This document shows, piece after piece, positions 20,174-38,333 of a stretch of 56,685 nt of DNA. Every line of letters starts with the position of its first letter. The stretch's first letter is position 1. The stretch lies in sequence record SRR22947727_3604; one strand, 5' to 3'. A program made the translations under genes and the position numbers. The notes below the pieces were generated by a model that saw nothing but the letters and a program-made list of their open reading frames with translations, made no database searches and was not told the origin of the DNA.

Positions 20174-20175
20174 AT

Positions 20176-20218: not shown

Positions 20219-20220
20219 AT

Positions 20221-20260: not shown

Positions 20261-20335
20261 GAGAAGTAATGTTAACAGGCGTTAGAAAGGGCTTTACTAG
20301 ATGTTGTTAGACTGTATTAAGTTTGACTTCGGAGT

Positions 20336-20351
20336 TCACCTCTTCCGCCAT
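20336..20351 (+). repeat. att core (right), duplicated tRNA-Ser 3' end
   Basis: TCACCTCTTCCGCCAT, identical to 8061-8076. Confidence 0.92.
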
Positions 20352-20357
20352 ATTTAG

Positions 20358-20726: not shown

Positions 20727-20739
20727 TAAAGCTGACTGT

Positions 20740-21060: not shown

Positions 21061-21068
21061 GTAATTTC

Positions 21069-21713: not shown

Positions 21714-21716
21714 ATT

Positions 21717-22001
21717 TTATCGTTTGTATAAGACTGAAAGCTCTTTTATTTTATTTGCTTGCTCACTTTGATCATTTGACTTAAATATTTCCATGACGCA
21801 TCTCTCAAGGTGTTTCTCAAGCATAATAATCTCTAATGATTGACATGCTGAGCTCACTGCCTTTAGTTGTGAAATGATGTCCGGGCAATATCGCTGGTCT
21901 TCAATCATCCTCTTAATTCCATTTAGCTGCCCTGCGATTTTGTTTATCCTTGGAATATACTTTTCATAGTTTGGGTGTTTTTCATCACATGAATTAGTCA
22001 T
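21717..22001 (-). CDS. CsoR/RcnR-family metal-sensing repressor
   Basis: RINKIAGQLNGIKRMIEDQRYCPDIISQL...LEKHLERC. Confidence 0.88.
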   Translation of the reverse strand: MTNSCDEKHPNYEKYIPRINKIAGQLNGIKRMIEDQRYCPDIISQLKAVSSACQSLEIIMLEKHLERCVMEIFKSNDQSEQANKIKELSVLYKR

Positions 22002-22019
22002 ACTTATCTCCTTATATTT

Positions 22020-22053
22020 TTAATATACTCTATACCCCTGTGGAGTATATTAA
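22020..22053. promoter_or_regulatory. putative CsoR-family operator
   Basis: TATAC-CCCTGTGGA-GTATA, overlapping an 11-bp inverted repeat TTAATATACTC/GAGTATATTAA just upstream of the repressor gene. Confidence 0.7.
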
Positions 22054-22163
22054 TACTCTTTAGTTCATATTTTTAAAAATATAATTAACTACTTTGAATT
22101 TATTCCCAGTTAATTATCTCAGAGTTATAATTACTTTAATTAATAAAAAAAAGAACATATGAG

Positions 22164-22667
22164 ATGACAAATTTTGAGCAAGAAATGATAAATGTGCTGG
22201 AGCAGCATGTTGAGGCAGAAATGAATGGTGATTTAGAGCTAACAATGGCTACAATGAACGAAAATCCTCACCTTTTAAATGTTCCTAACATGATGGGCGG
22301 AGATGATTTCGATGGAGTGAAAACTTTTTATAAAGTTCATTTGGTAGGTAAATTTTTTCCACCAGATGTGGAATTTAATAGAATTTCATTAATTATAGGG
22401 AAAGATCAGATTGTAGAGGAGCTTGTCATCAGCTTTACTCATACCAAAAAAGTTGACTGGTGTTTACCCAATATTGAGCCTACAAATAAAAAAGTAAAAA
22501 TGGCTGTGGTAGTAATTGCAGGTATAGACAATAAAAAATTAACACATGAGCATATTTATTGGGACCAAGCCAGTGTTCTAGTTCAGGTAGGATTAATCGA
22601 TCCAATAAATCTTCCTGTGGTCGGTGACCAAAGCGCAAACAAACTATTAAAAATTGCTAATATCTAG
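22164..22667 (+). CDS. SnoaL/ester-cyclase-like (NTF2-fold) protein
   Basis: HVEAE...TMATM, FTHT, HEHIYWDQASVLVQVGL. Confidence 0.75.
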   Translation: MTNFEQEMINVLEQHVEAEMNGDLELTMATMNENPHLLNVPNMMGGDDFDGVKTFYKVHLVGKFFPPDVEFNRISLIIGKDQIVEELVISFTHTKKVDWCLPNIEPTNKKVKMAVVVIAGIDNKKLTHEHIYWDQASVLVQVGLIDPINLPVVGDQSANKLLKIANI

Positions 22668-22692
22668 ATTGATTAAGAAGCTATAGGCTCAA

Positions 22693-23967
22693 ATGAAATC
22701 GATATATTGGTTTAGAAATGATCTGAGATTGAATGATAACCTCACATTAAATGATGCTATAGAATCATCTGATGAGTTATTATTTATATATATCCAAGAT
22801 ACAAAAAATTCTAAAGAGACTGAATGGAAATTCTCCCGCATGGGACGACATAGAAGGTCTTTTCTATCACAGGGCCTGAGTGCATTAAGTAATAAACTCA
22901 GTGAGTATGGACATTCATTAAACTATTACTCAGATAATTCGCTTGATAGATTACTTAAATTAGTCGATAAATTTGAAATAGATAGAATTTATTGTGAGTC
23001 TATTGATGCATATGAAGAACTTGTTGAGGAAAAAAAATTAAGGCAGCATAAAATTGATTTACACACGACCTATCAATCAGGTTTGTATTTAACTGACCAG
23101 ATTCCCTTTAGTTTAGACGAGCTACCTGATGTATTTACTAGCTTCAGAAAACAGATTGAATTAAAAAAAATTAAACCCAATAAGCCTTTATCCATTAACG
23201 AAAGAATAAATCGAATTAAATCAATTATTGATGAAGAATCGATTACTTTTGAGGAAAAAATCAAGACTTACGCCAACAGTTCTTTTCCTATTTCTGAGAA
23301 TAGGTTTTCCGGTGGAGAAGATAAAGGATTTGCTTACCTTGAGTCTTACTTTAGTTCAAACAAACCCTCAACTTATAAAAAAACACGAAATGAGTTAATG
23401 GGTATTGATTTTTCTACCAAATTATCACCATGGCTAGCATGTGGTTACGTTTCGGCAAGACAAGTCTATGATTTTTTATTGAATTATGAAGAGAGCATAA
23501 ATAAAAATGAGAGTACTTATTGGATATTTTTTGAGTTACTCTGGAGAGAATACTTTAGGCTAATCTTTAAAAAATATGGAAAAAAAATATTTCATAAGTA
23601 TGGACTTGGGTTTTCTGAAGGAGAAGTTGATCATTCTCCAGAAAATTTTGAGTTATGGCGGGAAGGTAAAACCAGGAGTAACTTTATAAATGCAGGGATG
23701 AAGGAATTAAACGAGACGGGTTTTCTTTCTAATAGAATGCGACAAATTGTAGCGAGTTTTTTAGTTAATGAATTAGCATGCGACTGGAGGGCAGGTGCAG
23801 CCTGGTTCGAGTCTCAGCTTATTGATTATGATGTTTTTAGCAATCAATGTAACTGGGCTTATATTGCAGGGTACGGAACTGATCCTCGCGGAGGCAGGCA
23901 TTTCAATATTCATAAACAAAAAGCTACTTATGACCCAAACAATCTATATCAAGAGTTATGGTGTTAG
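22693..23967 (+). CDS. cryptochrome DASH
   Basis: WFRNDLRL, YKKTRN, STKLSPWL, FELLWRE, SNRMRQ, GTDPRGGRHFN. Confidence 0.9.
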   Translation: MKSIYWFRNDLRLNDNLTLNDAIESSDELLFIYIQDTKNSKETEWKFSRMGRHRRSFLSQGLSALSNKLSEYGHSLNYYSDNSLDRLLKLVDKFEIDRIYCESIDAYEELVEEKKLRQHKIDLHTTYQSGLYLTDQIPFSLDELPDVFTSFRKQIELKKIKPNKPLSINERINRIKSIIDEESITFEEKIKTYANSSFPISENRFSGGEDKGFAYLESYFSSNKPSTYKKTRNELMGIDFSTKLSPWLACGYVSARQVYDFLLNYEESINKNESTYWIFFELLWREYFRLIFKKYGKKIFHKYGLGFSEGEVDHSPENFELWREGKTRSNFINAGMKELNETGFLSNRMRQIVASFLVNELACDWRAGAAWFESQLIDYDVFSNQCNWAYIAGYGTDPRGGRHFNIHKQKATYDPNNLYQELWC

Positions 23968-23968
23968 A

Positions 23969-24850
23969 TTAATTATTTTTTGTAAACTGAATTATTTTTG
24001 GTAAAAGCATGTGCGCAATGGTTAGGCATGCCAGAATTGGAAATACAACTAAAAATCCATTAGCGTTAAAATCTAAATTTAAAATAATAATAATCAGAGT
24101 GATAGGCGCTGTGAAGAGAAGCAGCCAAAGTATATCTGATGAAAAATTGAAATTGTAGTTAATTAGTGCTCTGATTCCATGTAAAAAACAAAAGTAGAAC
24201 CCAAACCATAATAATGGGTGGAGATAGTATGCCAATGCAATTATGACAATAAGCTCCCCCAATAAGAGAAAATAAATTTTATCTTTTGATTTCGTAAGGT
24301 TAAACAGAATATGAATAGTTAAAAAAATTAGATTGATAAAACTTAAGTATTGTAAAAAGCTCATTGAAGAGTTGATAATATTGCTATTAGTAAGCAAATA
24401 AAATATTTCATTAACGCTTGATGGATGAAATAGAATGGGCAGAAAAGTCATGGCTAGGCCCCAGCTATATTTTAAATATTTAGATTTATTACCAATGTAC
24501 AAAAGGTCTGAAAGGCCAAAATGAATGACCGAGATAATAAGCAAAATAAACAGACCCAAGGTAGGCGAAAGAAACCATATCCATAGCCCTAACAAAGAAA
24601 TTAATATATAAATAAAGTAAAGTCTAAAGGCATTTTTTTTATTTCCGCTGTCCCAAATAATTTTTCCATCTAATGCACCATGACTGACGCCAAGAGTGCT
24701 AATTAGAAGAAACGAAGTTAAAAGAATCAGGTTTGCTTGTGAGAGCATATCGAAATTTAAATACCCAGATGGGGCTAGGGAAAAAGATAAGGATAATATT
24801 ACTAAGCCGAGAATTATAACGAACAGTTGATGTTTTGATACCTTAGTCAT
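23969..24850 (-). CDS. blh: Blh/Brp beta-carotene 15,15'-dioxygenase
   Basis: GVSHGALD, IHFG.SD, YFCFLHG, LTIAHM (four His); last gene of the crt operon. Confidence 0.9.
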   Translation of the reverse strand: MTKVSKHQLFVIILGLVILSLSFSLAPSGYLNFDMLSQANLILLTSFLLISTLGVSHGALDGKIIWDSGNKKNAFRLYFIYILISLLGLWIWFLSPTLGLFILLIISVIHFGLSDLLYIGNKSKYLKYSWGLAMTFLPILFHPSSVNEIFYLLTNSNIINSSMSFLQYLSFINLIFLTIHILFNLTKSKDKIYFLLLGELIVIIALAYYLHPLLWFGFYFCFLHGIRALINYNFNFSSDILWLLLFTAPITLIIIILNLDFNANGFLVVFPILACLTIAHMLLPKIIQFTKNN

Positions 24851-25974
24851 TTCTTCTTCAAAAGTCCCTTGATCATTAGATTTTTAGGCATGCTTAAAAT
24901 AATATTTATGATATCAAGCCATGATGGCTTGTCTGATAAAAATTTAATAAGTGATTTATGATTTGATTTGCTAAAAAGTTTGATAAATAAATCAGGGCTT
25001 TTGTCCGGGTGGTCTTTAATAACCCTTAAGAAAATTCTATCAAAAAAGTCCAGTGATGGATTTGACTTATATTTAAAAGAAAATAAATTATTTTTCTTTA
25101 AAGATTTACCTTTATTATCTGAAATCCAATTTGCAATTTTTCTCATTGAGTAGCCAGATGACGCCCTTACCATGCCAGCAGCAGTACCAATCTTAATGAT
25201 CCTTTCGCTTGTTTGTGCTTCTATTAATGCCATAGGGATAATACCCTTTTCACTTCGGAGTATTTTGTAAGAACCATATTTCTTTAAATTTTTTATATGT
25301 TTTGTTTGTAGTTTCTTTAAATTAGGATTACTAGAAAATACGGTAGTTTCAACAAGCGCTCTTTTTTTAGTAAAAGGTAACTGGTAAATAAACTCGGTTT
25401 CATTTTTATTTTTTGAAAAAGACATTATAGTTGCCTCAGAATTATTAAAATTATCTGAATTAACTTCAATTACATTTCCAATAAATGCTTGTTGAATGTA
25501 TTCGGATTTAATTTCACTCTTACTTATTTTAGGTCTACTATCAAGTAGATAGTTTGATAAAAAAGTACCCTGTGAGCTTATTACCTGAACTTTTTTTTCT
25601 AGCTCATTAACCTTTTGAACTTTAATTCCATAAAGAATTTTTATTTTTCCTTTTACTTGTCTTGTCAGTGACTTTAGGGTTGAGTATCCATCATGATGAA
25701 CATAGCGAAAAGGACTTATATCTTTTTTTATTTTGTCACCATTGCCCTCAATTAATATTTTATTCCATCGGTATTTTGATTTTAATTTATATTCCTTCTC
25801 AATATCAATTAATCCAGGGCCTTCCCAAACACAAAAGGATTGACTGTGATCAATCGATTTTTTTTGCTCTATAACCAGGATCGATAATTTAGGTTTATTT
25901 TTAAGTATCTTTGATAAGAACATGAGGCTTGAGAGTCCTGCCCCAATTACGGTGATGTCATATTCTTTTATCAT
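24847..25974 (-). CDS. crtY: lycopene beta-cyclase
   Basis: IGAGLSSL, DSRP, FIYQLPF..ALVETT, EKGIIPM, GTAAGMVRASSGY. Confidence 0.88.
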   Translation of the reverse strand: MIKEYDITVIGAGLSSLMFLSKILKNKPKLSILVIEQKKSIDHSQSFCVWEGPGLIDIEKEYKLKSKYRWNKILIEGNGDKIKKDISPFRYVHHDGYSTLKSLTRQVKGKIKILYGIKVQKVNELEKKVQVISSQGTFLSNYLLDSRPKISKSEIKSEYIQQAFIGNVIEVNSDNFNNSEATIMSFSKNKNETEFIYQLPFTKKRALVETTVFSSNPNLKKLQTKHIKNLKKYGSYKILRSEKGIIPMALIEAQTSERIIKIGTAAGMVRASSGYSMRKIANWISDNKGKSLKKNNLFSFKYKSNPSLDFFDRIFLRVIKDHPDKSPDLFIKLFSKSNHKSLIKFLSDKPSWLDIINIILSMPKNLMIKGLLKKK

Positions 25975-26861
25975 TAAAAATTTGTATCCGGGAGATTACC
26001 AAGTGATGCATGTAATTTTCTTTCATGTAATGGTATGTCAAAATCTTTTGAAAGTTTCAGTAATGTTTTAATCGTTAATTTGAGCTTTTCATAATTTTTA
26101 AGAAATACTCTTTGCTCGTTAAAAGAAATTTTTTTTTGTATTATTTTATGTCCTATACCTTGGTAAATATTTGATGCCACCATAAATGACCTTTTTATTT
26201 TTTTTGGTAGTTGATTTATACCAAAAACACCACTTTCATAATAACTATCAGCTAATTTTATTAGTTTATCTCTAGTGCTATTTATTATCATTAGGTCAGT
26301 TTTTGATGGATTTTTAAAATTATTTATTTTAAGGGAGGCGGTTTCATTTTTTGGAAGATATATTCGATCAATTTGAGCATCTTCATTTATGTCACGACAT
26401 ATATTTGTAAGTTGCATTGCAATCCCAAAATCAATAGCGAAGTATCTTAATTTTGCATCATGAATACCTAAAACATCACAAATCATCAAACCAACAACAC
26501 CCGCGACACGGTAACAATACTTTAATAGCTGGCTAAGATCTTTAGGTTGTTTGAAGTCTAGATCACTTAGTTGTCCCTTAAGGAATTCATCGATAATATC
26601 TTGTCTTGGGATGAGGTTGCTATCAATATTCCTAAATTCCTCAAAATTCTTATTACGTTGATTATTGCTTGCAGATGAGATTAATTTAGATAATTCCTCT
26701 CTAGTCTTAGTATTTTTATTTGATGTATCTACCAGATCATCTAATCTACGACACAATGCATACACAGCAAATAATTTATTCGCTGTAGGTTTGTCTAAGA
26801 ACCACGATGCCCAAAAAAATGTTTTACCATGCTTTTGCATGACATTTGCATAATTACTCAT
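25974..26861 (-). CDS. crtB: phytoene synthase
   Basis: HGKTFFWAS, CRRLDDLVD, MQLTNICRDINED. Confidence 0.92.
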   Translation of the reverse strand: MSNYANVMQKHGKTFFWASWFLDKPTANKLFAVYALCRRLDDLVDTSNKNTKTREELSKLISSASNNQRNKNFEEFRNIDSNLIPRQDIIDEFLKGQLSDLDFKQPKDLSQLLKYCYRVAGVVGLMICDVLGIHDAKLRYFAIDFGIAMQLTNICRDINEDAQIDRIYLPKNETASLKINNFKNPSKTDLMIINSTRDKLIKLADSYYESGVFGINQLPKKIKRSFMVASNIYQGIGHKIIQKKISFNEQRVFLKNYEKLKLTIKTLLKLSKDFDIPLHERKLHASLGNLPDTNF

Positions 26862-28324
26862 GGGTATAGAATATTTTCAACAGCCTTAGCTGAATTGATA
26901 ACGCCAGGGACTCCTGCACCTGGGTGTGTGCCTGCACCGACATAAAATAAATTTTTATATTTATCATCTTGGTTATGGGTTCGAAACCATGCCGATTGCC
27001 TCAAAATGGGTGCTATTGAAAAGCCACTTCCATATGGAGTTCTATAGTTAGATTTAAAATCGTTTGGTGTCATTGAAAAAATATCTCGGGCATTTTCTTT
27101 AATGCCTGGCATGATAGTTTTGTCTAGTGCTTCAAGAATTTTATCTGAAAACTGTTCCTTAATTTTATCCCAATTCTGTTTTCCTTTTAAGTTGGGGACG
27201 GGCACAAGAGCGTAATAACTATCCTGTCCTTTTGGGGCAAAAGATGAATCAGTACAGGTCGGTCTGTGGAGATAAATAGAGAAATCATCTGCTAGTTTAT
27301 GGTGATCAAAGATATCTTCGAGGAGCTCTTTATATCTTGGTCCCATCCAGATCGTGTGGTGAGCAACATTACTATACTGTTTAATTGATCCAAAAAATAA
27401 GACAAAAAGTCCCATAGAATGTTTAGCAAATTTATTTACGAATGCATTATGAAATGATATTTTTTTTCTTCCAATAAGTTCATTTGAGACTTGGATGGGA
27501 TCAGCATTACTTATCACAAGATCAGACTTTTGAGTATGGCCATTTGTAAAATGAATTTCTGAAATTTTATTATTTTTAGTTGATAAGTGCTCAACATCAT
27601 GTTGATATTTTATTTTTATATCATGACGTAACATAAGCTTTTCTAATTCGTGAACAAGCTTACCTGTCCCACCCATGCAGAAGTAAATACCCCATTTCTG
27701 TTCCAGGGAGTGAATGAGGGCATAAATAGAGGAGGTCTGAAATGGGTTGCCTCCAACCAAAAGCGGTTGAATTGAAAAGGCTTGCCTTAAATTGGGATGT
27801 TTTAAGTATCTTGATACAAAGGTGTATACAGATTCATATCCTCTCATTTTAATTATTGCAGGTGCATATTTAATCATCGTAAATATTTTGTGAAAGGGGT
27901 GGCCAGCTAATTTTTGATAGCCTAATTCAAATATTGCGTTTGCCTCTTTAAGCATTTTTAAATAACCATCAACATCCTCTGGTGAAATTTTCTCAATTTG
28001 AGTAAGCATTTCCTCTCGATTAGGACCATAGTCAAATTGTGTTTGGTCATGGAAGTTAAAACGGTACCAAGGGTCAAGCGATCTGAAATCCAAATGATCG
28101 TCAAGCTTTTCGCCAAATAATTCAAATAATTCATAAAATAAATAAGGTGCTGTAATAACGGTTGGACCCGCATCATGAATATAGTTATTTTTTTTGAATA
28201 CTTGCGCACGACCACCTAATGCATCCAGCCTCTCAAAAAGAATCACATTGTTACCTTTGGCTCGAAGCCTCAGAGCAGATGCTATACCCCCAAAACCACC
28301 CCCAATTACTGCAACCTGACTCAT
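26858..28324 (-). CDS. crtI: phytoene desaturase
   Basis: GGGFGG, DAGPTVIT, VGAGTHPGAGVPGV. Confidence 0.95.
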   Translation of the reverse strand: MSQVAVIGGGFGGIASALRLRAKGNNVILFERLDALGGRAQVFKKNNYIHDAGPTVITAPYLFYELFELFGEKLDDHLDFRSLDPWYRFNFHDQTQFDYGPNREEMLTQIEKISPEDVDGYLKMLKEANAIFELGYQKLAGHPFHKIFTMIKYAPAIIKMRGYESVYTFVSRYLKHPNLRQAFSIQPLLVGGNPFQTSSIYALIHSLEQKWGIYFCMGGTGKLVHELEKLMLRHDIKIKYQHDVEHLSTKNNKISEIHFTNGHTQKSDLVISNADPIQVSNELIGRKKISFHNAFVNKFAKHSMGLFVLFFGSIKQYSNVAHHTIWMGPRYKELLEDIFDHHKLADDFSIYLHRPTCTDSSFAPKGQDSYYALVPVPNLKGKQNWDKIKEQFSDKILEALDKTIMPGIKENARDIFSMTPNDFKSNYRTPYGSGFSIAPILRQSAWFRTHNQDDKYKNLFYVGAGTHPGAGVPGVINSAKAVENILYP

Positions 28325-29289
28325 TGTTTAGCCTTATTTAAATTATTCATTCTAAAGTTAATTTCGTTGTATATTGACATTAATACAGGTTCAATGACTT
28401 TGGGTACTCTATGAAATTCATCTTTCGCTTCATTTAATAAATTTTTGATCATACCTATTTGATTTTTAAATTCATTATCACTTAAATACCTAGTAAGACT
28501 GGGCGGGTCTTGGATAATTTCTATTTTTTTTGATTCCTTGAGATTTTTTAAGATATTTATTAACATCCCATTTGGATGATTTTTATATATATCGGTACAT
28601 TTATCTTGATCGATTCCAATTAAATTTTCTAAGTCATTTAGCCATTGATAAGAAAGCCCAAGGATATTAGAGGACTTCTGAAGTCCTTCACATTCTCCTG
28701 TTGAACATTCCTTACATTCAAACATACCCATCATTGGAAGTGAGATAAAAGGCGCTGTTTTATGCGTCGCCATTTTTATATATTGATCCCATGTCATTTC
28801 ATAAGGGCTAATACTTATATCCTTCGATTGCCCGAAAATAATTTCTTTTACTGAACAAGAGAGTAACTTCAATAATATAGTTTGGTGCCAGCCTTGATCA
28901 ATTTCTGTGATTTTTCTGAAAGCCTCAGCAATTAAGTAATCACCCGTACAGATAGCAGCAGATATCCCAAACTCTTTCCATAAGCTTGTTTGTCCTCGTC
29001 TCAGATCATCCTGATCACATATATCGTCATGGAGCAGAGATGCACTATGAATTAACTCACAAACGACTGCCCAGTTGATATAGGTTTGGGATGAAATGCC
29101 TAATAACCCACCTGTTGCGAGTGCGAGTCTGGCTCTTAACCATTTCCCTTGAGATTCACCGTGATGTGACAGCCATGCAGATAAAAATTGATCATCAACT
29201 TCAAAGCTTTCTGCAAAATCAATTTTAACTTTATCTAAAAATTCATCCGCCTCAGGGGGCACAAAAAAATCATCCCAATGTTTTTTCAT
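28321..29289 (-). CDS. crtE: geranylgeranyl diphosphate synthase
   Basis: GKWLRA, ELIHSASLLHDDICDQDDLRRG, KT motif; second motif reads NDLEN. Confidence 0.85.
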   Translation of the reverse strand: MKKHWDDFFVPPEADEFLDKVKIDFAESFEVDDQFLSAWLSHHGESQGKWLRARLALATGGLLGISSQTYINWAVVCELIHSASLLHDDICDQDDLRRGQTSLWKEFGISAAICTGDYLIAEAFRKITEIDQGWHQTILLKLLSCSVKEIIFGQSKDISISPYEMTWDQYIKMATHKTAPFISLPMMGMFECKECSTGECEGLQKSSNILGLSYQWLNDLENLIGIDQDKCTDIYKNHPNGMLINILKNLKESKKIEIIQDPPSLTRYLSDNEFKNQIGMIKNLLNEAKDEFHRVPKVIEPVLMSIYNEINFRMNNLNKAKQ

Positions 29290-29313
29290 AATAGATTTTT
29301 TTTAAATTGGTTT

Positions 29314-30051
29314 TTATGCTCCAATATCTGATTTTCTTTGAGCGATTAAATAAATCATAATACCAAATGAGGCGATTGATAAGATATCTGCAACCGTATA
29401 GCCAACCTGTAAATTTACATAGGATGCGCTTGGATCAAATATTGGAAGAAGGTAAACAATAGGGTAAATTGTCCAAGATCCAATTAGCAACCACCTTGAA
29501 TTACTCACTAAGCTTTGAACATTTTTTGGTTGTTTCGAAATAGGATTTTTTAATTTTATGATTAAGTTATAGAGAATGAATAAAAAAGGAAACATTGCAA
29601 GTGACCAATATATCCATCTCTCATGTAATTGATCAGCATTAACTAACCCTTCACCAGAATATCCTAAGAGCACCATAATAATTGCTGCAATAGTTAACTT
29701 AGTGCCCAAAGAAAAGGTCTCTTCTCTTGATAATCTTATGACCAAGACAAGTTCAAGTAATAGCAACGGCACGGTGAGAAGCCATCCAACATAACGATAA
29801 CTTACATTCAACTGCCCACCTGTTTCTGTAATTACCCCATTAATAACTACATAGGCTTCATTAAAGCTCTCAAATATTCTCAAATAATGATAAAGCGCGA
29901 TCAGGCAAACTAAACCAGCCAGAGTTAAGGCTGTTTTATAAGCAGGTGCAACTTGTGATCTCTGACAAAAAAAGAAGACAGTGCTCGCCCCAAATGTGGC
30001 GATTGCAAAAGATAAAGTGTTGTAGAGTAAATTGTAGTCAGCTACTTGCAT
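29314..30051 (-). CDS. xanthorhodopsin-like opsin lacking the retinal-binding Lys (K to I) and the counterion Asp (D to G)
   Basis: XR-type N-terminus YNLLYNTLSFAIA...SQVAPAYK. Helix C RYVGWLLTVPLLLLE, helix F WTIYP, helix G ADILSIASFG. Confidence 0.9.
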   Translation of the reverse strand: MQVADYNLLYNTLSFAIATFGASTVFFFCQRSQVAPAYKTALTLAGLVCLIALYHYLRIFESFNEAYVVINGVITETGGQLNVSYRYVGWLLTVPLLLLELVLVIRLSREETFSLGTKLTIAAIIMVLLGYSGEGLVNADQLHERWIYWSLAMFPFLFILYNLIIKLKNPISKQPKNVQSLVSNSRWLLIGSWTIYPIVYLLPIFDPSASYVNLQVGYTVADILSIASFGIMIYLIAQRKSDIGA

Positions 30052-30077
30052 TACACCCTAAATCATCAAAAAGAATT

Positions 30078-30108
30078 AAAAAAAACGCGCCATAAATGAC
30101 GCGTTTTT
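30078..30108 (-). terminator. intrinsic terminator between proteorhodopsin and the Lys-less opsin
   Basis: Minus strand AAAAACGCGTCATTTATGGCGCGTTTTTTTT. Confidence 0.8.
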
Positions 30109-30132
30109 AATATTACACTACAGATTCAAAAA

Positions 30133-30828
30133 TTACTTAGTTTTTGTACCTGATGTAGCTGCTGCCCAAATTACAACACCAAAGGCAATCTTGTTAACAA
30201 AGTCAGCTAAGTTGTATACGATATTTAGAGTACCGGCATCAGCACTGCCTGTGTACCCAAGATAGTATCCGATTGGATAAATAGCCCAACCAACAGTAAC
30301 GATTAATCTTAACGCATTAAAAGCTTTCTTACTTGCAGCGGTACCTTTGCTTGCGCTAATCTGACTAGCTTCACCTTTAAATACTTCCCAGATGATATAT
30401 AACCATGCAACCATACCAATCCAGAAACCAGACCATAGGCTACCACCGTCTCCCATTGCACTTACTTCACCAATGTAGCCAGCTACTAACATAACTACTG
30501 AGGCAATTAATAAACGCCAAAATACTGAAATAGAAACGACTGCAATCGCAGCAAGAATTAAATAAAACTCAACAATTTGAAGTGGTACTGTAAGAAGCCA
30601 ATCTACGTATCTAAATACTGTTGGCGAACTTCCTGTATCAATCCAAACACCACGCATGTAAAAGTAATGAATAGCAGCAATACCTGTAACCATTGCAGCT
30701 ACTGTAAGTGAAGTCTTCCATTTACCTACAGCTCTATCTCTCTCAACCCAGAAAAAAAATGTTGCAGCAACCATAGCCGCTGAAAGCAGCCAAAAGGTAA
30801 CTCCAACGTAATCTGATGGATTTAACAT
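30133..30828 (-). CDS. proteorhodopsin, DTE motif, Gln at the spectral-tuning site (blue-absorbing type)
   Basis: RYVDWLLTVPLQIVEF, IHYFYMR, LADFVNKIAFG. Start re-called at ATG 30828 behind AGGAGG. Confidence 0.95.
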   Translation of the reverse strand: MLNPSDYVGVTFWLLSAAMVAATFFFWVERDRAVGKWKTSLTVAAMVTGIAAIHYFYMRGVWIDTGSSPTVFRYVDWLLTVPLQIVEFYLILAAIAVVSISVFWRLLIASVVMLVAGYIGEVSAMGDGGSLWSGFWIGMVAWLYIIWEVFKGEASQISASKGTAASKKAFNALRLIVTVGWAIYPIGYYLGYTGSADAGTLNIVYNLADFVNKIAFGVVIWAAATSGTKTK

Positions 30829-31120
30829 ATTTAAAACCCTCCTATAAAAACGTTTAAACAAAAATGTCTTAGCATCATCACCCTTAGACTGTTTACGTTT
30901 TGATTAAAAAAATGTCTTAAAAAGAGAGCTAATAAATTTTAAAAAAACGAACTTTATTAGCACACCTGATAAAACAATATTAAATTTACCACAATTTTTA
31001 AAAAGATTTTTAAAAATAAGCCTTATAGACATATTTTTTTTTTGGGAGTTCCTTTAAAAATTTAAAGTTGGTTTTATTTTAATATCGAATGGGCATTGAA
31101 CTACTTTATAATAAATTCAA

Positions 31121-32647
31121 ATGAGTAGACTAAGATTAATATTAGGTGACCAATTAAATTTAAACCACTCATGGTTTAAAGAGACGAACTCTTCAGTTAC
31201 ATATGTAATGATGGAGGTAAAAGATGAAACAAACTATGTGCTTCATCATGCTCAAAAAATTATTGCGACATTTGCAGCCATGCGTTTTTTTGCAAATCAA
31301 CTCAGATCAAAAGACCTTGAGGTTATTTATTTAAAAATTAACGATAAAGAAAACAGACAAAATTTTTATGAGAACATTAAAAGCATTGTTAAAAAAAGAA
31401 ATTTCAGCCAGCTAGAGTATCAAAATCCAGACGAATATCGGTTAATGACAGAATTGCAAAAACTTCATTCAATCGAAGATATAAAAGCGGTTCCAGTTGA
31501 CTCGGAACATTTCTTAATCCCAAAGCTATATGCGAAAGAATTTTTTTCTGAAAAGAAACATTGGCGGATGGAAGAATTCTATAGACACATGAGAAAGAAA
31601 TTCTCTATTTTAATGGAGGGTGAAAAACCTATTGGAGGAAAGTGGAATTATGATGTAGACAATCGAAAAAGATGGGATGGTTCACCTAGCTCAACTCAAG
31701 ATTTTAGACCTTCCCATAATCACGAAAAAATTTTTTTAGAAATAAATGACGAGAATATCGAGTACTTTGGGGAGAGCCAAGCAACAGATTTTCGTTGGCC
31801 TATTAGTAGGGATGAATCTATTGAATTACTTGAAAATTTTATTGAAAAAGATCTTCTTTATTTTGGTGATTTTCAAGACGCCCTTCATGATGAAAACTGG
31901 AGATTATTCCACTCATTTTTATCTTTCTCACTAAACACTAAAATGCTTAGCCCAATTGAAGTGATTAAAAAGGCTGAAGATGCATACAATAAAAAAGATT
32001 TACCCCTGGCATCAACTGAAGGGTTTATAAGACAAATTTTGGGTTGGCGTGAATATATTAGAGGAGTTTATTGGGCAAATATGCCCGGGTATGATCAACA
32101 TAATTTTTTTGAGCATAAAAATAAGCTTCCTGAATGGTACTGGACAGGAAAAACCGATATGCGATGTCTATCACAAAGCATTTCGCAATCATTAACTAAC
32201 GCATATGCCCATCATATCCAAAGGCTGATGGTTATTGGTAATTTTAGTTTATTAGCAGGTATTAATCCAAAAGAGGTTCATCAATGGTACCTTGGAATTT
32301 ATATCGATGCATATGAATGGGTAGAGCTTCCTAATACACTAGGCATGAGTCAGTTTGCCGATGGTGGGATATTAGCAACGAAGCCTTATGTATCATCTGC
32401 ATCTTATATTAATAAAATGAGTAATTACTGCACCAAATGTAAATATAATTTTAAGGAAAAAGTGGGAGAAAATGCTTGTCCATTTAATTCACTTTATTGG
32501 AATTTTTTTGATAGACATCAAGATAAGCTTTCAAAAAATCCAAGATTAGGAATTGTAAATAGTCAACTTAAAAAAATGAATCCAACTCAAAAAGAACAAA
32601 TCAATAAAAAAGCAGAATTTTATTTAAAAAATTTAAATACTCTCTAA
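31121..32647 (+). CDS. FeS-type bacterial cryptochrome/(6-4) photolyase (CryB/PhrB family)
   Basis: LILGDQL, HHAQKI, GGKWNYD, YAHHIQRLM. Cys at MRC, YCTKC and ACPF are candidate 4Fe-4S ligands. Confidence 0.9.
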   Translation: MSRLRLILGDQLNLNHSWFKETNSSVTYVMMEVKDETNYVLHHAQKIIATFAAMRFFANQLRSKDLEVIYLKINDKENRQNFYENIKSIVKKRNFSQLEYQNPDEYRLMTELQKLHSIEDIKAVPVDSEHFLIPKLYAKEFFSEKKHWRMEEFYRHMRKKFSILMEGEKPIGGKWNYDVDNRKRWDGSPSSTQDFRPSHNHEKIFLEINDENIEYFGESQATDFRWPISRDESIELLENFIEKDLLYFGDFQDALHDENWRLFHSFLSFSLNTKMLSPIEVIKKAEDAYNKKDLPLASTEGFIRQILGWREYIRGVYWANMPGYDQHNFFEHKNKLPEWYWTGKTDMRCLSQSISQSLTNAYAHHIQRLMVIGNFSLLAGINPKEVHQWYLGIYIDAYEWVELPNTLGMSQFADGGILATKPYVSSASYINKMSNYCTKCKYNFKEKVGENACPFNSLYWNFFDRHQDKLSKNPRLGIVNSQLKKMNPTQKEQINKKAEFYLKNLNTL

Positions 32648-32700
32648 AAAACTCTACCCTCATAATCTAATTAAATTTTTTTTAGGTATAATTTTCACTA

Positions 32701-34167
32701 ATGATTACCAAAGAAAATAAAAACAATTTCTTAATAAAATCTCTTATTCATCTAATAGCTTTATTTTTTATTCTTGGTTGCAAGGCTGTTGGGCCAGATT
32801 ATGAAGGCTCACCTGAAATGGATGTTCCAGATAATTGGAACAACCAGTTAAACAATGAATTTGTTGAAGACAGTGATTATCAGAAACAATGGTGGACACT
32901 TTTAGATGATCCAGTTCTTAATGACTTAATAAGTAGGGCGTCTGTCGATAACCTAGATGCAAAAATTGCACTTACAAGAGTTGAAGAGGCTAGAGCAAAT
33001 TTTAGAATTGTTGATGCCACAAGATTCCCCGAAATTGATGCTGTTGGTGATGCGTCAAGAAAAAGTAGTAGTAAGTCTGCTGCTGGAGATAAAAATACTG
33101 ATAACTATACTTCGATTGGCCTAGATTTAAGTTGGGAAATTGATCTCTTTGGATATGTAAGGAGATCGATTGAAGCAGCGGATGCGCAATATCAGGCAAC
33201 CGTTGAAAGTTATCGAGATGTAATGGTAATTTTATACGCAGAAATTGCAAAGAATTACATTGCATTACGCACCTCTCAAAAAAGACTTCAGTTTGCACTT
33301 GAGAATGTTAAATCACAAAGAGAAACTTTAAAGATTGTTAATGCGCGCTTTAAGGCTGAGCTTGTTTCAGAGATTGATGCGCTTCAGTCAGAGCAAAATT
33401 TAGCAGCAGCAGAATCTTATGTGCCACTTTTTCATGCCGATATCGATGAGTTAATGAATAGCCTTGCAGTCCTGTTGGGAAAAAACCCTGGCTCACTTAA
33501 CGAAGAGCTAAGAGGAAATAAAGGTATTCCACAAGTGTCAGAAAAAACAGTTGTTGAGTTACCAAGGGAAATTTTAAGACAACGACCTGACATTAGAAGA
33601 GCAGAAAGAAGATTGGCCCAAGAAACAGCTGAGGTCGGTATTGCAACTGCTGAAGAATATCCTAGATTCAATCTGAACGGTACCTTTGGCTATGATGCAA
33701 GAGGCTCTGATAGTCAGTTCAGCTCGAACTCCAGATATTGGTCATTTGGACCAAATTTTAGATGGAATATTTTTGATGCAGGTGCAACACAAGCTGGAAT
33801 TGAGGTTGCGGATGCTCGACTTGAGGAAGCTCGTGTAAACTATGAAAAGAAAGTTATAACCGCATTTGAGGAAGTTGAAAATGCTCTTAAGTCTTACAAA
33901 GAGGAAAAGCAAAGAAATACATCGCTCACGGCATCGGTCAAAGCCGCTAAAAAAGTAAATAAAATTACAGTGGCTAGGTATACCTCAGGCCTTATTGATT
34001 TTCAAGAGGTCCAAGATGCAGAAAGAGTTATTTTTTTCCAAGAAGATGAGTTAGCTAAAAGTGATGGAAATTTAGTACAATTTATAATTCAGCTATATAA
34101 AGCAATGGGCGGTGGTTGGGATGCCACAGAAATTCCTGTTCAAGACATTAGCGATGAAGATACTTAG
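32701..34167 (+). CDS. RND outer-membrane lipoprotein (NodT/OprM family)
   Basis: LGC lipobox, VGPDY, WEIDLFG, RPDIRRAE, LYKAMGGGW. Confidence 0.92.
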   Translation: MITKENKNNFLIKSLIHLIALFFILGCKAVGPDYEGSPEMDVPDNWNNQLNNEFVEDSDYQKQWWTLLDDPVLNDLISRASVDNLDAKIALTRVEEARANFRIVDATRFPEIDAVGDASRKSSSKSAAGDKNTDNYTSIGLDLSWEIDLFGYVRRSIEAADAQYQATVESYRDVMVILYAEIAKNYIALRTSQKRLQFALENVKSQRETLKIVNARFKAELVSEIDALQSEQNLAAAESYVPLFHADIDELMNSLAVLLGKNPGSLNEELRGNKGIPQVSEKTVVELPREILRQRPDIRRAERRLAQETAEVGIATAEEYPRFNLNGTFGYDARGSDSQFSSNSRYWSFGPNFRWNIFDAGATQAGIEVADARLEEARVNYEKKVITAFEEVENALKSYKEEKQRNTSLTASVKAAKKVNKITVARYTSGLIDFQEVQDAERVIFFQEDELAKSDGNLVQFIIQLYKAMGGGWDATEIPVQDISDEDT

Positions 34168-34177
34168 GGAATAGCGT

Positions 34178-35230
34178 ATGAAAAAAATAATTTTTTTAAT
34201 ATTCATAGTCTTTTTTATTTCATCCTGTGGAAAGGAAGAGCCGGTAAAAGAAACACCGATACCAAAGATTGCTTGGATGGAAGTGAAACTATCAGGAGTT
34301 GAACAAACAAGAAAGCTATCTGGGCAACTTAACCCGAGAGAGGGTGCTTCACTAAGTTTCAATGGTGGTGGCTACGTCACAGATGTAAAAGTTGATTTAG
34401 GAAGCAAGGTAAAAAAAGGTCAAGTTTTAGCAAGGCTATCCCAGAGAGATGCTAAAAGTATTTATCTTTCATCACAATCTGATTACGTGAACAAAGAGTC
34501 ATATTACAATCGTATGAAGGTCGCTCGAGAAAGTAAGGCGGTCTCACAACAGGATGTGGCTGATGCCAAAACAGAATTAGAAATTGCTGCTTCAAATTTA
34601 GCAATCAGTAAAAAAGGGCTTGATGATACAGTTCTTAGAGCGCCTTATGACGGCACAATCACCTTTAAAGATGTAGACGAGGCCCAACAAGTTTTTATTG
34701 GTGAAACACTTTTTAAAATTGATGGCGGTGAAGGGCTTGAGGTGTCAGTTTTTGTTCCAGAGACGCTAATTAAAAAATTAGTTCAAGATAAAATTTATAC
34801 GGTCACCTTTCCTGCGGCTAAAGGACTTGAAATGAAGGGGGTGCTTAAAGAAATTGGTACACAAGCAACAAGAGCAAATTCTTTCCCAGTAGTTTTGTAT
34901 CTTACTGAACAATCTTCAGAGCTCAGAGCTGGCATGACAGCAGAAGTTTTATTTGTTTATTATCAAGACGTAGAGGAAAGTATATTGATACCAAACTCTG
35001 CATTAGGGGTAGGCAATCAACAATCAAGCTTTGTTTTTGTTTATGATCCGAATTCGAGCAGACTTAAAAAAGTGATGGTTAAGCCACTGAATATTACAAA
35101 TAATGATGTTTATGTTCAAGGCAACATAAAATCTGGTGATATTATTGCCGTGGCTGGAGTTCCTTATCTCCGCGACAACCAAGAGGTGATATTACAAGAG
35201 CAAGATATAGAAATATTTAACTTTAACTGA
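34178..35230 (+). CDS. RND periplasmic adaptor (MFP)
   Basis: SSC lipobox, VKKGQVLA, LRAPYDG, LRAGM. Confidence 0.9.
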   Translation: MKKIIFLIFIVFFISSCGKEEPVKETPIPKIAWMEVKLSGVEQTRKLSGQLNPREGASLSFNGGGYVTDVKVDLGSKVKKGQVLARLSQRDAKSIYLSSQSDYVNKESYYNRMKVARESKAVSQQDVADAKTELEIAASNLAISKKGLDDTVLRAPYDGTITFKDVDEAQQVFIGETLFKIDGGEGLEVSVFVPETLIKKLVQDKIYTVTFPAAKGLEMKGVLKEIGTQATRANSFPVVLYLTEQSSELRAGMTAEVLFVYYQDVEESILIPNSALGVGNQQSSFVFVYDPNSSRLKKVMVKPLNITNNDVYVQGNIKSGDIIAVAGVPYLRDNQEVILQEQDIEIFNFN

Positions 35231-35243
35231 GACTGGTCTTTTA

Positions 35244-38200
35244 ATGAATATTTCAGAGTTAGCTTTTAAATATAAGAAAATATTTTTATTTATTGTTGTA
35301 AGTCTGATGCTTTATGGCGGCATCAGTTATTTTACCCTGCCTTCCCAAGAAGACCCTTCCATCGTAAGCCGTGAAGCAATTGTTACAACGAATTTTCCTG
35401 GAATGTCACCACAAAGAATTGAGCTTCTGATAACCAAAAAATTAGAAGAACAGATTCGAAAAATCCCTGAGATTAAGATGCTCACATCAATTTCTCAAAC
35501 AGGATCCTCAATCATTCATGTCAAAATAGAGGATAAATACTTCAACTTAGCCGATATTTGGCAAAACTTACGAAACAAAGTTAAGGATGCAGAAAAAGAG
35601 CTGCCCAAGGGTTCGTCGACTCCAAACATAAATGATGAATTTGGTGATGTCGCTGTCATCACAATGGCATTAACCTCAGATGGTTTTGGTATGAATGAAA
35701 TGCACGATATGGCAAAACACATTAGAGACATTCTTTACGGTATAAAGGGCACAAAAAAAATTGACTTATTTGGCATTCAAGACGAAAGAATTTATTTAAA
35801 ATTTGAGTCAACAAAGCTTGCAGAGCTAGGTGTTAACCCCAGTCAGATTGCGGCTGCGCTCAGTTCACAAAATATTATTATGCCAGGAGGTCAAGTTGAC
35901 ACTGGAGCAAGGTCGTTTGTCTTGGAGCCAACAGGTGATTTTAAAGATATCGAAGAGTTAGGGGATACATTAATCTCAGTACCCAGGTCGGGTTACAAAA
36001 CAGACACTGAGGACGTTATATCCTTAAGAGATGTAGCCGTTATTGAACGAGGATATATAGACCCACCAAGTAAAACAGCATATTTTAACGGTAAACCGGC
36101 CATTGTTTTTGGTATTTCAATGCTGGAAGGTTATAACCTCTTAGAATTTTCACCAAGGGTTCTAAATGTGATATCAGAAATTCAAGAAACTATGCCTTTT
36201 GGATACCATATAGATATCGCCACCTATCAGGCTGATGTTGTTCAAGATACCATTAACGGAGTATCGATTAACGTAATACAGACTCTGGTCATTGTTCTAT
36301 TTTCGGTTATCATTTTTCTTGGTTTTAGAACAGGCTTTATTGTTGGCTCCATCGTTCCAACTGTCATGTTGATTACACTCGCATTGATGAATTTTTATGA
36401 TCTTCAGCTCGAGAGGATGAGCCTTGCAACACTCATTATTGCTTTGGGGTTGCTGGTGGATAATGGAATTGTTGTCGCTGAAGATTTTATGAAAAGGTTA
36501 GAGAATGGTATCTCCAGAATTGAAGCACTCAAGGGGGTAGGCAAAGAATTAACGATTCCGTTACTGACCTCATCTTTAACAACTATTTTATTTTTTCTTC
36601 CACTTATGCTGGCAGAATCAACCGCAGGTGAGTATACAAGGTCACTCTCATTAGTTATTGCAATGGCTTTATTGACTTCATGGATTGCGGGGCTTTGTTT
36701 AACCCCCATACTCTGTTATTTCTTTTTAAAAATTGATAAGAAAAAAAGTAAAGAAAAAGAAACATCAGGAATTTTCTATAAATTATCAATAGGCTATGGT
36801 TTTCTTCTTAAAGGCATTTTAAAGATAAGGTTTATATTTTTAGCGAGCATGTTTGCAGCGTTTGTATTTGCGATTATGTTAAGCAAAGATGTCCCTAAGC
36901 GTTTTTTCCCAGATTCAGATAGACCTCAAATATTAGTTTATACGCAACTTCCTGCTGGAACCTCTCAAAGAGAGATGACAAGGAAAATGAAAGGGGTCTT
37001 TGAAGCGCTTAATGATAGAGAGTTATTTCCTAATATTGAGTCATTTTCGGGATACGTTGGATTTGGCGGTCCCCGTTTTGTCTTATCACTTGCACCTGAG
37101 GATGCAGCAGACAATATGGGCTTTATTATCATTAATATAGAAGATGTTGAAGCCCAAGATAGTTCTATGGAAAATTTAAGAATGACTTTAAATGATAGAT
37201 TTCCGGGGATGTTTTTTAGAATAAACAAGATGTTTTTGGGGGCAAGTGATTCTAGTGAAATTAAGTTACAAGTAGTCGGCCCCGATTCCAATGTAATTTA
37301 CGCCAAAGCCCAACAGTTGGTTGATAGATTGCACGAGATTCCAGGTGCCATTGATATCAGAACAGATTGGCAGAACAGAACTTTAAAAATTTTAATTAAT
37401 GTAGATCAAGTGAGAGCAAGGAGGGCAGGCGTATCTTCCAATGATATTGCTGAATCTCTCAATGCATATTTTGAAGGTTCAGAGGTTACCCAATTTCGTG
37501 AGAAAGACAATATTATCCCAATCTTATTTAGAGCGGAAGATGAGGAAAGATTTAATATGGATAGGATGAGGACATTAAATGTCTACTCATCAAGCAAAAA
37601 TACAAATGTTCCATTGTTTCAGATAGCTGACTTTGAGGGTCAAAATCAATTTTCAAGAATTGCACGCCAAGATTTATTCAGAACAGTTTCAGTAGAAGTA
37701 AAAAATATGAATTATACGGCTGAGGATTTTAAGGACGAATTAGATCCCATCGTTGAGGAGTTGAGTGGTGACTTACCACCCAATCATTTGATCAGGTACG
37801 ATGGCGTGATCAGAGAGTCTAAGGAGGCGAAAGACTCACTTTCTGCTAATGTACCGCTAGTGATAGGCCTTATTATCATCCTCCTGGTTGCCCAGTTCAA
37901 TTCATTTAGGAGGCCTTTGATCATTTTAATTACGATTCCTCTCTCATTCATTGGGGCTGTATTAGGATTACTTGTTTCAGGGGCAAACTTTGGGTTTATG
38001 GGTACACTTGGGCTTTATAGTTTGGCTGGTATTATTATTAATAATGCGATTATTTTGATTGATAGAATTGATTTCGAAAGAGATGCGGGTAAGAAGTTAT
38101 ATGATGCAATCGTAAGCGCCTGCCAACAGAGGCTAAGGCCAATCATTATTACTACATTAACTACCACACTTGGCTTATTAACATTAATCATTCCTCATGA

Positions 38201-38333
38201 CCCATTGTTTTATGGGCTCGCCAATATAATTGCATATGGACTAGGTGTGGGTACATTCCTTACCTTGGCAGTTGTCCCTGTTTTATATTCATTATTTTTT
38301 AATGATAAAAAGCCTAATACAAAACAAACTTAA
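35244..38333 (+). CDS. AcrB/AcrD/AcrF-family RND permease
   Basis: QEDP, ALGLLVDNGIVV, RLRPIIITT. Confidence 0.92.
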   Translation: MNISELAFKYKKIFLFIVVSLMLYGGISYFTLPSQEDPSIVSREAIVTTNFPGMSPQRIELLITKKLEEQIRKIPEIKMLTSISQTGSSIIHVKIEDKYFNLADIWQNLRNKVKDAEKELPKGSSTPNINDEFGDVAVITMALTSDGFGMNEMHDMAKHIRDILYGIKGTKKIDLFGIQDERIYLKFESTKLAELGVNPSQIAAALSSQNIIMPGGQVDTGARSFVLEPTGDFKDIEELGDTLISVPRSGYKTDTEDVISLRDVAVIERGYIDPPSKTAYFNGKPAIVFGISMLEGYNLLEFSPRVLNVISEIQETMPFGYHIDIATYQADVVQDTINGVSINVIQTLVIVLFSVIIFLGFRTGFIVGSIVPTVMLITLALMNFYDLQLERMSLATLIIALGLLVDNGIVVAEDFMKRLENGISRIEALKGVGKELTIPLLTSSLTTILFFLPLMLAESTAGEYTRSLSLVIAMALLTSWIAGLCLTPILCYFFLKIDKKKSKEKETSGIFYKLSIGYGFLLKGILKIRFIFLASMFAAFVFAIMLSKDVPKRFFPDSDRPQILVYTQLPAGTSQREMTRKMKGVFEALNDRELFPNIESFSGYVGFGGPRFVLSLAPEDAADNMGFIIINIEDVEAQDSSMENLRMTLNDRFPGMFFRINKMFLGASDSSEIKLQVVGPDSNVIYAKAQQLVDRLHEIPGAIDIRTDWQNRTLKILINVDQVRARRAGVSSNDIAESLNAYFEGSEVTQFREKDNIIPILFRAEDEERFNMDRMRTLNVYSSSKNTNVPLFQIADFEGQNQFSRIARQDLFRTVSVEVKNMNYTAEDFKDELDPIVEELSGDLPPNHLIRYDGVIRESKEAKDSLSANVPLVIGLIIILLVAQFNSFRRPLIILITIPLSFIGAVLGLLVSGANFGFMGTLGLYSLAGIIINNAIILIDRIDFERDAGKKLYDAIVSACQQRLRPIIITTLTTTLGLLTLIIPHDPLFYGLANIIAYGLGVGTFLTLAVVPVLYSLFFNDKKPNTKQT

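Follow-up and report, generated by a model that had tools for sequence, protein, structure and literature searches.

Why would a bacterium keep, next to an ordinary proteorhodopsin (PR) gene, a second opsin gene in which both members of the charge pair at the retinal site are gone? The question is raised by a stretch of 56,685 nucleotides (nt) from sequence record SRR22947727_3604, called the window below, in which a PR gene is followed by a xanthorhodopsin (XR)-like opsin gene that encodes Ile in place of the Schiff-base Lys and Gly in place of the Asp that serves as primary proton acceptor. We consider it very probable that this second opsin is a member of the opsin class termed Rh-noK, an XR/Gloeobacter rhodopsin (GR)-type paralogue carried by marine Methylophilaceae of the OM43/BACL14 type, and that the two residues were lost once and the protein has been kept since. 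In coastal waters OM43 bacteria rank with the most abundant methylotrophs, and their PR is very common in ocean sequence data.

The second opsin and its relatives

The gene and the positions within it on which the argument turns are as follows:

29314..30051, minus strand: Rh-noK-type opsin of 245 amino acids, XR/GR-like, without the Lys and the Asp, intact (open reading frame (ORF), Pfam, PDB alignments)
29374..29376, minus strand: Ile226 (ATC), at the position of the Schiff-base Lys (codon read and alignment)
29377..29379, minus strand: Ser225 (TCA), the residue preceding the lost Lys (alignment)
29386..29388, minus strand: Asp222 (GAT), second counterion position, the Asp of DxxxK, kept (codon read and alignment)
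29752..29754, minus strand: Glu100, proton-donor position, kept in the window protein (alignment)
29785..29787, minus strand: Gly89 (GGA), at the position of the primary proton acceptor/counterion Asp (codon read and alignment)

The ORF contains no internal stops. Both opsins of the window match the Pfam family PF01036 (1.2e-31 and 4.9e-47), and the second scores 110.3 bits against the Bac_rhodopsin profile of that family (cut-off 24.6) over residues 15-236, which corresponds to a type-1 rhodopsin fold. A preliminary description of this DNA, made from the letters alone, had proposed a tandem of PR and a full-length 245-residue XR-like opsin placed before crtE-crtI-crtB-crtY-blh, and the ORFs and Pfam matches confirm it. 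When solved structures are searched with HMMER, the best relatives of the second opsin are GR (PDB ID: 6nwd; 1.3e-58), psXR (9wfa; 1e-57) and XR (3ddl; 2.9e-57), whereas PR structures reach only about 1e-25. Identity between the two opsins of the window is 30%. The closest solved structures by sequence, 6nwd and 3ddl, can be aligned with the window opsin from end to end, though both are light-driven proton pumps with the Asp, the Lys and, in XR, a carotenoid antenna, whereas the window opsin lacks both residues and has a Trp at position 149. In the HMMER alignments Gly89 faces the Asp of ‘yryvdw’ and Ile226 the Lys of ‘advlak’, so that the two replacements named in the preliminary description hold both by codon and by alignment. 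The remainder of the pocket, also said there to be kept, is indeed present: the window protein retains His55, Arg86, Trp90, Thr93, Pro95, Glu100, Trp193, Tyr196, Pro197 and Asp222.

Among the features that mark a proton pump of this family, the second opsin thus has the XR/GR kinship, Glu100 and His55, and lacks the Schiff-base Lys and the Asp acceptor. Because Lys has become Ile and Asp has become Gly, the protein is predicted to be unable on its own to form a Schiff base, to bind retinal covalently or to pump protons. Trp149 aligns in both 3ddl and 6nwd with the Gly of the antenna site, which we take to be Gly156 in XR numbering, and a carotenoid antenna on the second opsin is therefore unlikely. 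The accessible text of Salcher et al. 2019 (PMC6794327) also gives Gly156 of XR as an antenna-site residue.

We searched the nearest genome and 36 more of the same genus (n = 37) for the gene, and two genomes were added later. An orthologue of the second opsin is found in 29 of the 37, full length in 28 and cut by a contig end in one. Sixteen of the full-length copies are without both residues, with Lys replaced by Ile (Leu in one) and Asp by Gly (Ser in two), and the other 12 retain both, as the contig-cut copy retains its Lys. With the two further genomes, which are Lys-less, the totals come to 18 Lys-less genomes (counted at the species level) and 13 Lys-bearing ones, and each copy is an uninterrupted frame of 244-249 codons. 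In 17 of the 18 Lys-less genomes the gene directly upstream is PR; in the remaining one the contig ends 87 nt upstream, inside a PR-type 3′ region. Each of the 13 Lys-bearing genomes, five of them complete, gave a single opsin match. The joint loss of Lys and Asp, and its occurrence together with PR, had been named in the preliminary description as something to look for in orthologues; the joint loss is found in the 18 Lys-less genomes, with PR adjacent in 17 of them. In genome G020 (loci L002 and L030), which is 50% complete, crtE and a photolyase-related DPRP gene are each matched in two pieces lying in different frames, through frameshifts or assembly errors, and the opsin pair is intact.

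When considering the best 120 homologues in a collection of 5.8 billion proteins, the Asp is absent in 51, and Lys is found in none of the 48 of these that cover the Lys site. All matches of at least 65% identity among the 120 are of the Lys-less, Asp-less type, and some of the Lys-less clusters represent 411, 287 or 198 member sequences. Loci that are 85-100% identical are assigned to Methylophilaceae, to Methylophilales BACL14, to ‘Methylobacillus sp.’ metagenome-assembled genomes (MAGs) and to one complete Methylophilaceae genome, names that point to marine OM43/BACL14 as the host group and with which the source names of homologous proteins agree; one 86% identical contig of 2.2 kb is filed under a Flavobacteriaceae MAG. 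A complete genome of the tandem-bearing type is available as CP159827.1. RNA runs holding the second opsin are labelled marine or seawater metagenomes.

Other XR relatives without the Lys were surveyed in a library of representatives, a rough comparison in which many rows are fragments. Full-length XR-like representatives have Asn (P0149), Leu (P0180), Gln (P0208 and P0225) or Ile (P0214) at the Lys site, and in a rough alignment the Asp is also lost from P0208 (Gly), P0214 (Asn) and P0225 (Ser); joint loss may thus recur. A further genus of the family has, beside a PR gene, an XR-like match (G126:C15:2601-3266) with one in-frame TGA, possibly a broken second opsin of a different lineage.

A class of this description is already in print. 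According to the papers that cite it, Yamauchi et al. 2019 (Photochem Photobiol 95:1116; doi 10.1111/php.13114) described Rh-noK as XR-related, Lys-less opsins of marine betaproteobacteria that occur in tandem with PR, some of them adjoining retinal biosynthesis genes as a putative operon. The same papers relate that Rh-noK with the Lys restored binds retinal and pumps protons, and that the authors speculated that an Rh-noK multimer regulates the neighbouring PR. Since the XR kinship, the loss of Lys, the marine betaproteobacterial host, the PR tandem and the retinal genes all match, we file the window gene as already known, the match being one of description and not of sequence, and on the same descriptions the literature already has the class, its place in tandem with PR and the experiment in which Lys was restored. 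Rh-noK is said to account for about 600 of 5,558 known microbial opsin genes, or about a tenth (PMC7714340). Beyond what the citing papers describe, the present analysis adds the co-loss of the Asp, a fixed replacement of Ala by Ser, a single origin and an omega (dN/dS) of about 0.1, and further a terminator and read-through layout, presence in RNA libraries and three genomic contexts. Our literature search gave no other paper on a Lys-less OM43 opsin beyond those cited here.

Origin of the loss, selection and the retinal pocket

Of the 47 sequences in a maximum-likelihood (ML) tree, the 21 that are Lys-less group into a single clade, with support of 100/98 and a stem of 0.26 changes per site. 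Support for this clade is still 100 (SH-aLRT, an approximate likelihood-ratio test; quick method) without the four columns that carry the trait and without the long row P0070. Judged by these trees, the Lys and the Asp would have been lost once, long ago.

What has happened since can be read from substitution rates. For pairs with a synonymous divergence (dS) below 1.5, pairwise dN/dS is 0.04-0.17 among Lys-less opsins, 0.00-0.12 among their Lys-bearing orthologues and 0.00-0.17 for the neighbouring PR. ML estimates of omega (GY+F3X4+G4) are 0.100 for the Lys-less opsins (16 sequences), 0.037 for the Lys-bearing ones (12 sequences) and 0.042 for PR (15 sequences). On a fixed tree the log-likelihood (lnL) of the Lys-less clade is -5680.7 with omega free, -6354.7 with omega set to 1 and -5697.9 with omega set to 0.037, lnL values being compared only between fixed-tree runs (the first run with free omega had given -5641.4). 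With omega at about 0.10 and a value of 1 rejected, the second opsin appears somewhat relaxed compared to working pumps and yet far from neutral, and the substitution pattern argues for a protein kept under strong purifying selection and not for decay. The sign of decay named in the preliminary description, a dN/dS near 1, is thus not seen, and every copy is an intact ORF. We also note that dS is often much lower in PR than in the adjoining Lys-less opsin (0.23 against 1.50 for the pair L006-L016; 0.22 against 0.95 for L003-L004), which could be due to recombination of PR between lineages or to strong codon bias.

A comparison of 48 distinct Lys-less sequences with 78 Lys-bearing ones yields only three clade-wide replacements, K226 to I/L, A225 to S and D89 to G/S. 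Position 225 is Ser in 100% of the Lys-less clade and Ala in 99% of the Lys-bearing relatives, and position 89 is Gly in 88% of the Lys-less sequences and Ser in the remainder. The proton-donor position E100 is relaxed (Glu in 65%, Gln in the remainder), as are Y56, P132, F195 and a few loop positions. Conservation in the 48 sequences is 100% at H55, Y85, R86, Y87, W90, T93, P95, L96, L97, M126, G130, W149, M153, P155, F156, R186, W193, Y196, P197, Y200 and Q215, and 98% at D222; we take these positions to correspond to those of the retinal pocket and extracellular network of bacteriorhodopsin. The three replacements at the Schiff-base site are all smaller or uncharged residues, and none of the pocket positions compared has acquired a bulky one. 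That Lys restoration is described as giving both retinal binding and pumping (Yamauchi et al. 2019, via citing papers) likewise speaks for an intact pocket.

Over the whole protein the Lys-less clade has 95 invariant positions out of 245, and a set of 34 marine Lys-bearing relatives has 85; the two are alike in mean identity (0.763 for the clade, 0.771 for the relatives) and in variability per helix. The Lys-less clade has by now diverged to about 65-70% identity. A Schiff-base Lys that had merely moved elsewhere in the protein was considered and rejected, as the only invariant Lys specific to the clade, K176, lies in the E-F loop and none is new in the membrane core.

Layout, expression and history of the cassette

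The genes and signals around the second opsin are listed here in the order in which they would be transcribed:

30133..30828, minus strand: PR, 231 amino acids, ATG at 30828; DTE motif, Schiff-base Lys, Gln at the tuning site (ORF, Pfam, alignment)
30081..30108, minus strand: intrinsic-terminator-like hairpin (12 pairs) with T-run, between the PR stop and the second opsin (sequence scan)
30054..30059, minus strand: Shine-Dalgarno-like AGGGTG upstream of the second opsin ATG (sequence)
28321..29289, minus strand: crtE (polyprenyl synthetase), ATG 24 nt past the opsin stop (ORF, Pfam)
26858..28324, minus strand: crtI (phytoene desaturase type; Pfam amine-oxidase/CrtI type) (ORF, Pfam)
25974..26861, minus strand: crtB (phytoene synthase; Pfam SQS_PSY) (ORF, Pfam)
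24847..25974, minus strand: crtY (lycopene cyclase) (ORF, Pfam)
23969..24850, minus strand: blh (beta-carotene 15,15′-dioxygenase, the retinal-making enzyme; Pfam BCD/Blh) (ORF, Pfam)

A spacer of 81 nt leads from the PR stop to the second opsin, after which crtE-crtI-crtB-crtY-blh follow. The hairpin and T-run within this spacer are found at the matching site in 16 of 16 tandem copies compared (the window and L002-L016), and from the end of the T-run to the opsin ATG there are 18-26 nt, a count that is shortened by a second T-run in three loci. A ribosome-binding site (GGAG/AGGAG) is present in most orthologues compared, the exceptions being L004, L007 and L015, and a crude consensus scan between PR and the second opsin found no sigma-70-like promoter. 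Since 18-26 nt after a terminator leave no room for a promoter of its own, the second opsin would be transcribed only by read-through from PR, on an RNA (inferred from this layout) that continues into crtE-blh, and read-through past a terminator would give far less second opsin than PR. In the subclade of the window the 24-28 nt that separate the opsin stop from the start of crtE contain no hairpin. Elsewhere this spacer holds a terminator-like hairpin and T-run of its own, in L008, L009, L011 and L012 and, more weakly, in L010, L013 and L014. In the Lys-bearing genomes the terminator follows the XR-like pump itself.

The preliminary description had suggested looking for transcripts, and contigs from RNA libraries of four studies do cover the second opsin, with DNA carry-over into such libraries being possible. 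Some of these contigs span the terminator (X5, 29990-30140; X1; X8, 29133-30863). In two RNA studies the contig depth of PR is about 1100-11200 (X5) and about 570-1830 (X13), and that of the second opsin 54 and 5.8, near the depth of crtE, all of these being per-contig values of Logan assemblies that are unsuited to ranking genes. Bins of X13 inside the opsin gene that are uncovered (29392-29465 and 29984-30057) carry no meaning. For what they are worth, the depths hint that the terminator works and that the second opsin is scarce compared to PR. Codon bias, measured as the effective number of codons, is 39.9 for PR, 46.1 for the second opsin and 47.3 for crtE, so that the second opsin is like crtE and unlike PR.

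The PR of the window has Gln at its colour-tuning site, within VPLQIVEF, which presumably makes it blue-absorbing. Its exact sequence is present on 326 contigs, hundreds of others carry a near-identical one, and the homologue search returned only sequences of 97-100% identity, which say nothing on the origin of this PR. Leu or Met at the tuning site is described as giving green absorption (PMC12823576).

No HAMP/MCP transducer occurs among the neighbours scanned (18968-38333), none of which is a regulator or transducer gene adjoining the opsin-carotenoid cluster, and there is no flotillin gene in the ORFs examined beside the second opsin. The cassette is flanked by a photolyase-family gene (22693-23967, plus strand) and the photolyase-related DPRP gene (31121-32647, plus strand), flanks that the window has in common with its two closest complete relatives and that make up a small ‘light’ neighbourhood. 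About 4 kb beyond blh, within 18968-21713 on the minus strand, lies a gene for a tyrosine recombinase of the phage integrase family that includes an Arm DNA-binding domain; it has no adjacent tRNA, the closest being a tRNA-Ser at 7986-8075. After it come a gene for a small protein with a heavy-metal-associated domain and two ORFs without assignment. The 57-kb window also holds three efflux systems, or parts of them, of the resistance-nodulation-division (RND) type (8455-14516, minus strand; 32701-38333, plus strand; 47928-51041, minus strand), two of which are of the CusA/CzcA heavy-metal type, in a host genome of 1.2-1.4 Mb.

The freshwater sister genus, with genomes of 1.3 Mb, has the order PR, terminator, XR-like opsin, crtE; its PR is green-tuned and both of its opsins keep the Asp and the Lys. 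This agrees with the layout that Salcher et al. 2019 (PMC6794327) describe for ‘Ca. Methylopumilus’. The XR-like genes of ‘Ca. Methylopumilus’ and of the Lys-bearing marine OM43 are orthologous to the Lys-less form and 56-66% identical to it; in both groups they precede crtE, in the freshwater genus they also follow PR, and they too have Trp at the Gly position of the XR antenna. They differ in keeping the Asp and the Lys, and are taken to be proton pumps, whereas the Lys-less form has neither residue. Marine OM43 bacteria are said in the same paper to carry the XR-like gene only, which is true just for the Lys-bearing genomes, while of the 31 genomes in the genus with an XR-like gene, 18 have PR and the Lys-less form; the accessible text of that paper makes no mention of the latter. 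Since an intact tandem is found in the freshwater sister genus, the tandem of PR and XR-like opsin is probably older than the loss of Lys and Asp, as far as gene order can tell. The idea put forward in the preliminary description, that the second opsin was repurposed after a PR had taken over pumping, therefore survives in part: the protein is maintained, forming one clade with an omega of about 0.1, but the gene orders do not establish the proposed sequence of events, a takeover by PR before the loss.

Within the genus the cassette, [PR]-XR-like-crtE-I-B-Y-blh, is found in three genomic contexts (window 23969-30828; loci L083-L094). The first is shared by four Lys-bearing genomes in which the opsin stands alone (G002, G012, G021 and G026) and one Lys-less genome with the tandem (G015), the second by the window and two relatives, and the third by four other Lys-less genomes; PR and the Lys-less opsin stay paired in every one. 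In a tree of the single marker PpsA (30 genomes and the window, quick method) the Lys-less genomes are split into three groups or more, with Lys-bearing genomes placed between them. Lineages would then have exchanged the cassette, or it would have moved, unless the one marker is misleading. A recent recombination of the G015 cassette with those of its Lys-bearing neighbours was considered and rejected, as gene-by-gene identities show no mosaic and the cassette is deeply diverged.

What the second opsin might do

We know of no bacterial Lys-less opsin with an assigned function. The candidate roles named in the preliminary description were a non-covalent carrier or buffer for retinal or carotenoid, a feedback sensor for the crt-blh pathway, and an assembly or hetero-oligomer partner of PR. 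The reading we favour is that the second opsin assists the PR/retinal system as a protein of low abundance, that its preserved pocket would hold retinal non-covalently, and that it would either buffer the reactive aldehyde released by Blh or hand retinal to apo-PR. The three changes at the Schiff-base site would make room for the free aldehyde and could hydrogen-bond it. We prefer this reading because it is difficult to see why else buried residues of the pocket should be under selection, because the site changes suit a free aldehyde in the way just described, and because the expression class of the gene resembles that of the pathway enzymes. Taken as one account, Rh-noK identity, read-through expression and a retinal-holding accessory together seem to us to fall a little short of an even chance; non-covalent retinal holding as the mechanism is tentative, and we would regard it with some doubt. 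A fuller version, in which a former pump has turned into a membrane chaperone or buffer for retinal, co-transcribed with Blh and feeding apo-PR, and has become part of a mobile two-gene module with PR that is seen in at least three contexts, is unlikely as a whole and is put forward as speculation.

Several points weigh against retinal holding. Conservation of the pocket may just reflect the stability of a fold of seven transmembrane helices (7-TM), and binding of retinal, or of any other ligand, by the second opsin is a prediction. The depth of the second opsin in RNA libraries, close to that of crtE, is also what DNA would give. Other bacteria with PR get by without a helper of this kind, as do the OM43 relatives that keep the Lys. 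Finally, Lys-less opsins of this kind are reported in a paper citing Yamauchi et al. 2019 to have ‘showed no retinal binding’.

The main alternative, which citing papers give as the speculation of the 2019 authors, is a regulatory or structural subunit, a retinal-free protomer that would co-assemble into PR pentamers or hexamers and tune their pumping or assembly. It would account well for the adjacency to PR in 17 of 18 genomes (the last being the contig-end case), for a pair that stays intact across three genomic contexts, and for constraints on the overall fold that are like those of working pumps. However, the two opsins come from different subfamilies and are only 30% identical, and the second is placed behind the terminator of PR and lacks a promoter of its own. 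Its contig depth, about 20- to 300-fold under that of PR in the two RNA studies, is weak evidence but would make it substoichiometric. An interface role would moreover leave the invariant buried pocket residues unexplained. We thus consider a stoichiometric part in PR oligomers less likely than a retinal-holding accessory, and the subunit idea unlikely overall, if still one to be taken seriously.

Less probable again is a 7-TM role independent of light and retinal, such as lipid scrambling, an aid to membrane insertion, or a passive path for protons or ions through Arg86, Asp222 and His55. These three residues are invariant despite the loss of their Schiff-base partner, and there are precedents: non-light roles are known or proposed for the opsin-related proteins (ORPs) of haloarchaea and fungi (Becker et al. 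2016, PMC4915679), yeast ORPs are named among Lys-less relatives (PMC7714340), and a PR is reported to act as a scramblase in the dark (PMC10730872). The haloarchaeal and fungal proteins nevertheless belong to other opsin clades, and whereas many of the haloarchaeal type adjoin HAMP/MCP (methyl-accepting chemotaxis protein) transducers, which suggests that they are sensors, the window opsin adjoins PR and the retinal pathway; Methylophilales and other betaproteobacteria are not mentioned in the accessible text of Becker et al. A role without retinal would explain neither this strict linkage nor the invariant aromatic lining of the pocket (W90, W149, W193 and Y196), and we regard it as improbable.

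A pseudogene in slow decay, made redundant by PR, would fit the loss of two catalytic residues, the Gln that about a third of the clade has in place of the donor Glu, and an omega some 2.5 times that of working pumps, at whose value the fit is worse (-5697.9 against -5680.7). Yet the 18 genome copies and the full-length database members are free of stops and frameshifts, an omega of 1 is worse than the estimated 0.10 by about 674 lnL units, 95 positions are invariant despite divergence to about 65-70% identity, and the ribosome-binding site is conserved, so that decay is excluded for practical purposes. An error of sequencing or assembly at the two codons, which the preliminary description had already thought unlikely, can be dismissed, since two base changes lie between each of ATC and GGA and the codons for Lys (AAA/AAG) or Asp (GAT/GAC), 17 other genomes and dozens of metagenome clusters share these residues, and both codons are without an alternative letter in the RNA contigs of four studies (X13 covering the Gly codon only).

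A parallel to the window opsin, at least in outline, is found in the flotillin-associated rhodopsins, or FArhodopsins (PMC10308929; bioRxiv 10.1101/2025.04.29.651185), which, in the accessible text of these reports, are likewise apparently retinal-free second opsin paralogues in streamlined marine bacteria that also have a normal PR. Marine FArhodopsins are derived from PR and keep the Lys while their pocket is filled or reduced, whereas the window opsin is derived from XR and has lost the Lys while the lining of the pocket is kept. They also occupy a cluster of their own that includes a flotillin gene, and are found in SAR11, HIMB59 and Pseudothioglobus, whereas the neighbours of the window opsin are PR and crtE.

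The gene class itself is thus not news; what usefully extends its description are the estimates of selection, the loss of the Asp along with the Lys, and the read-through layout. The Lys-less clade offers a clean natural experiment, with one apparently ancient loss, purifying selection, an untouched pocket and a fixed partner gene, and since sister genomes have a working version of the opsin at the same place, it should be a good system in which to study the function of Lys-less opsins. If the second opsin does prove to be a retinal chaperone or buffer, it would represent a new functional class of microbial opsins, and would offer a reason why one in ten opsin genes is without the Lys.

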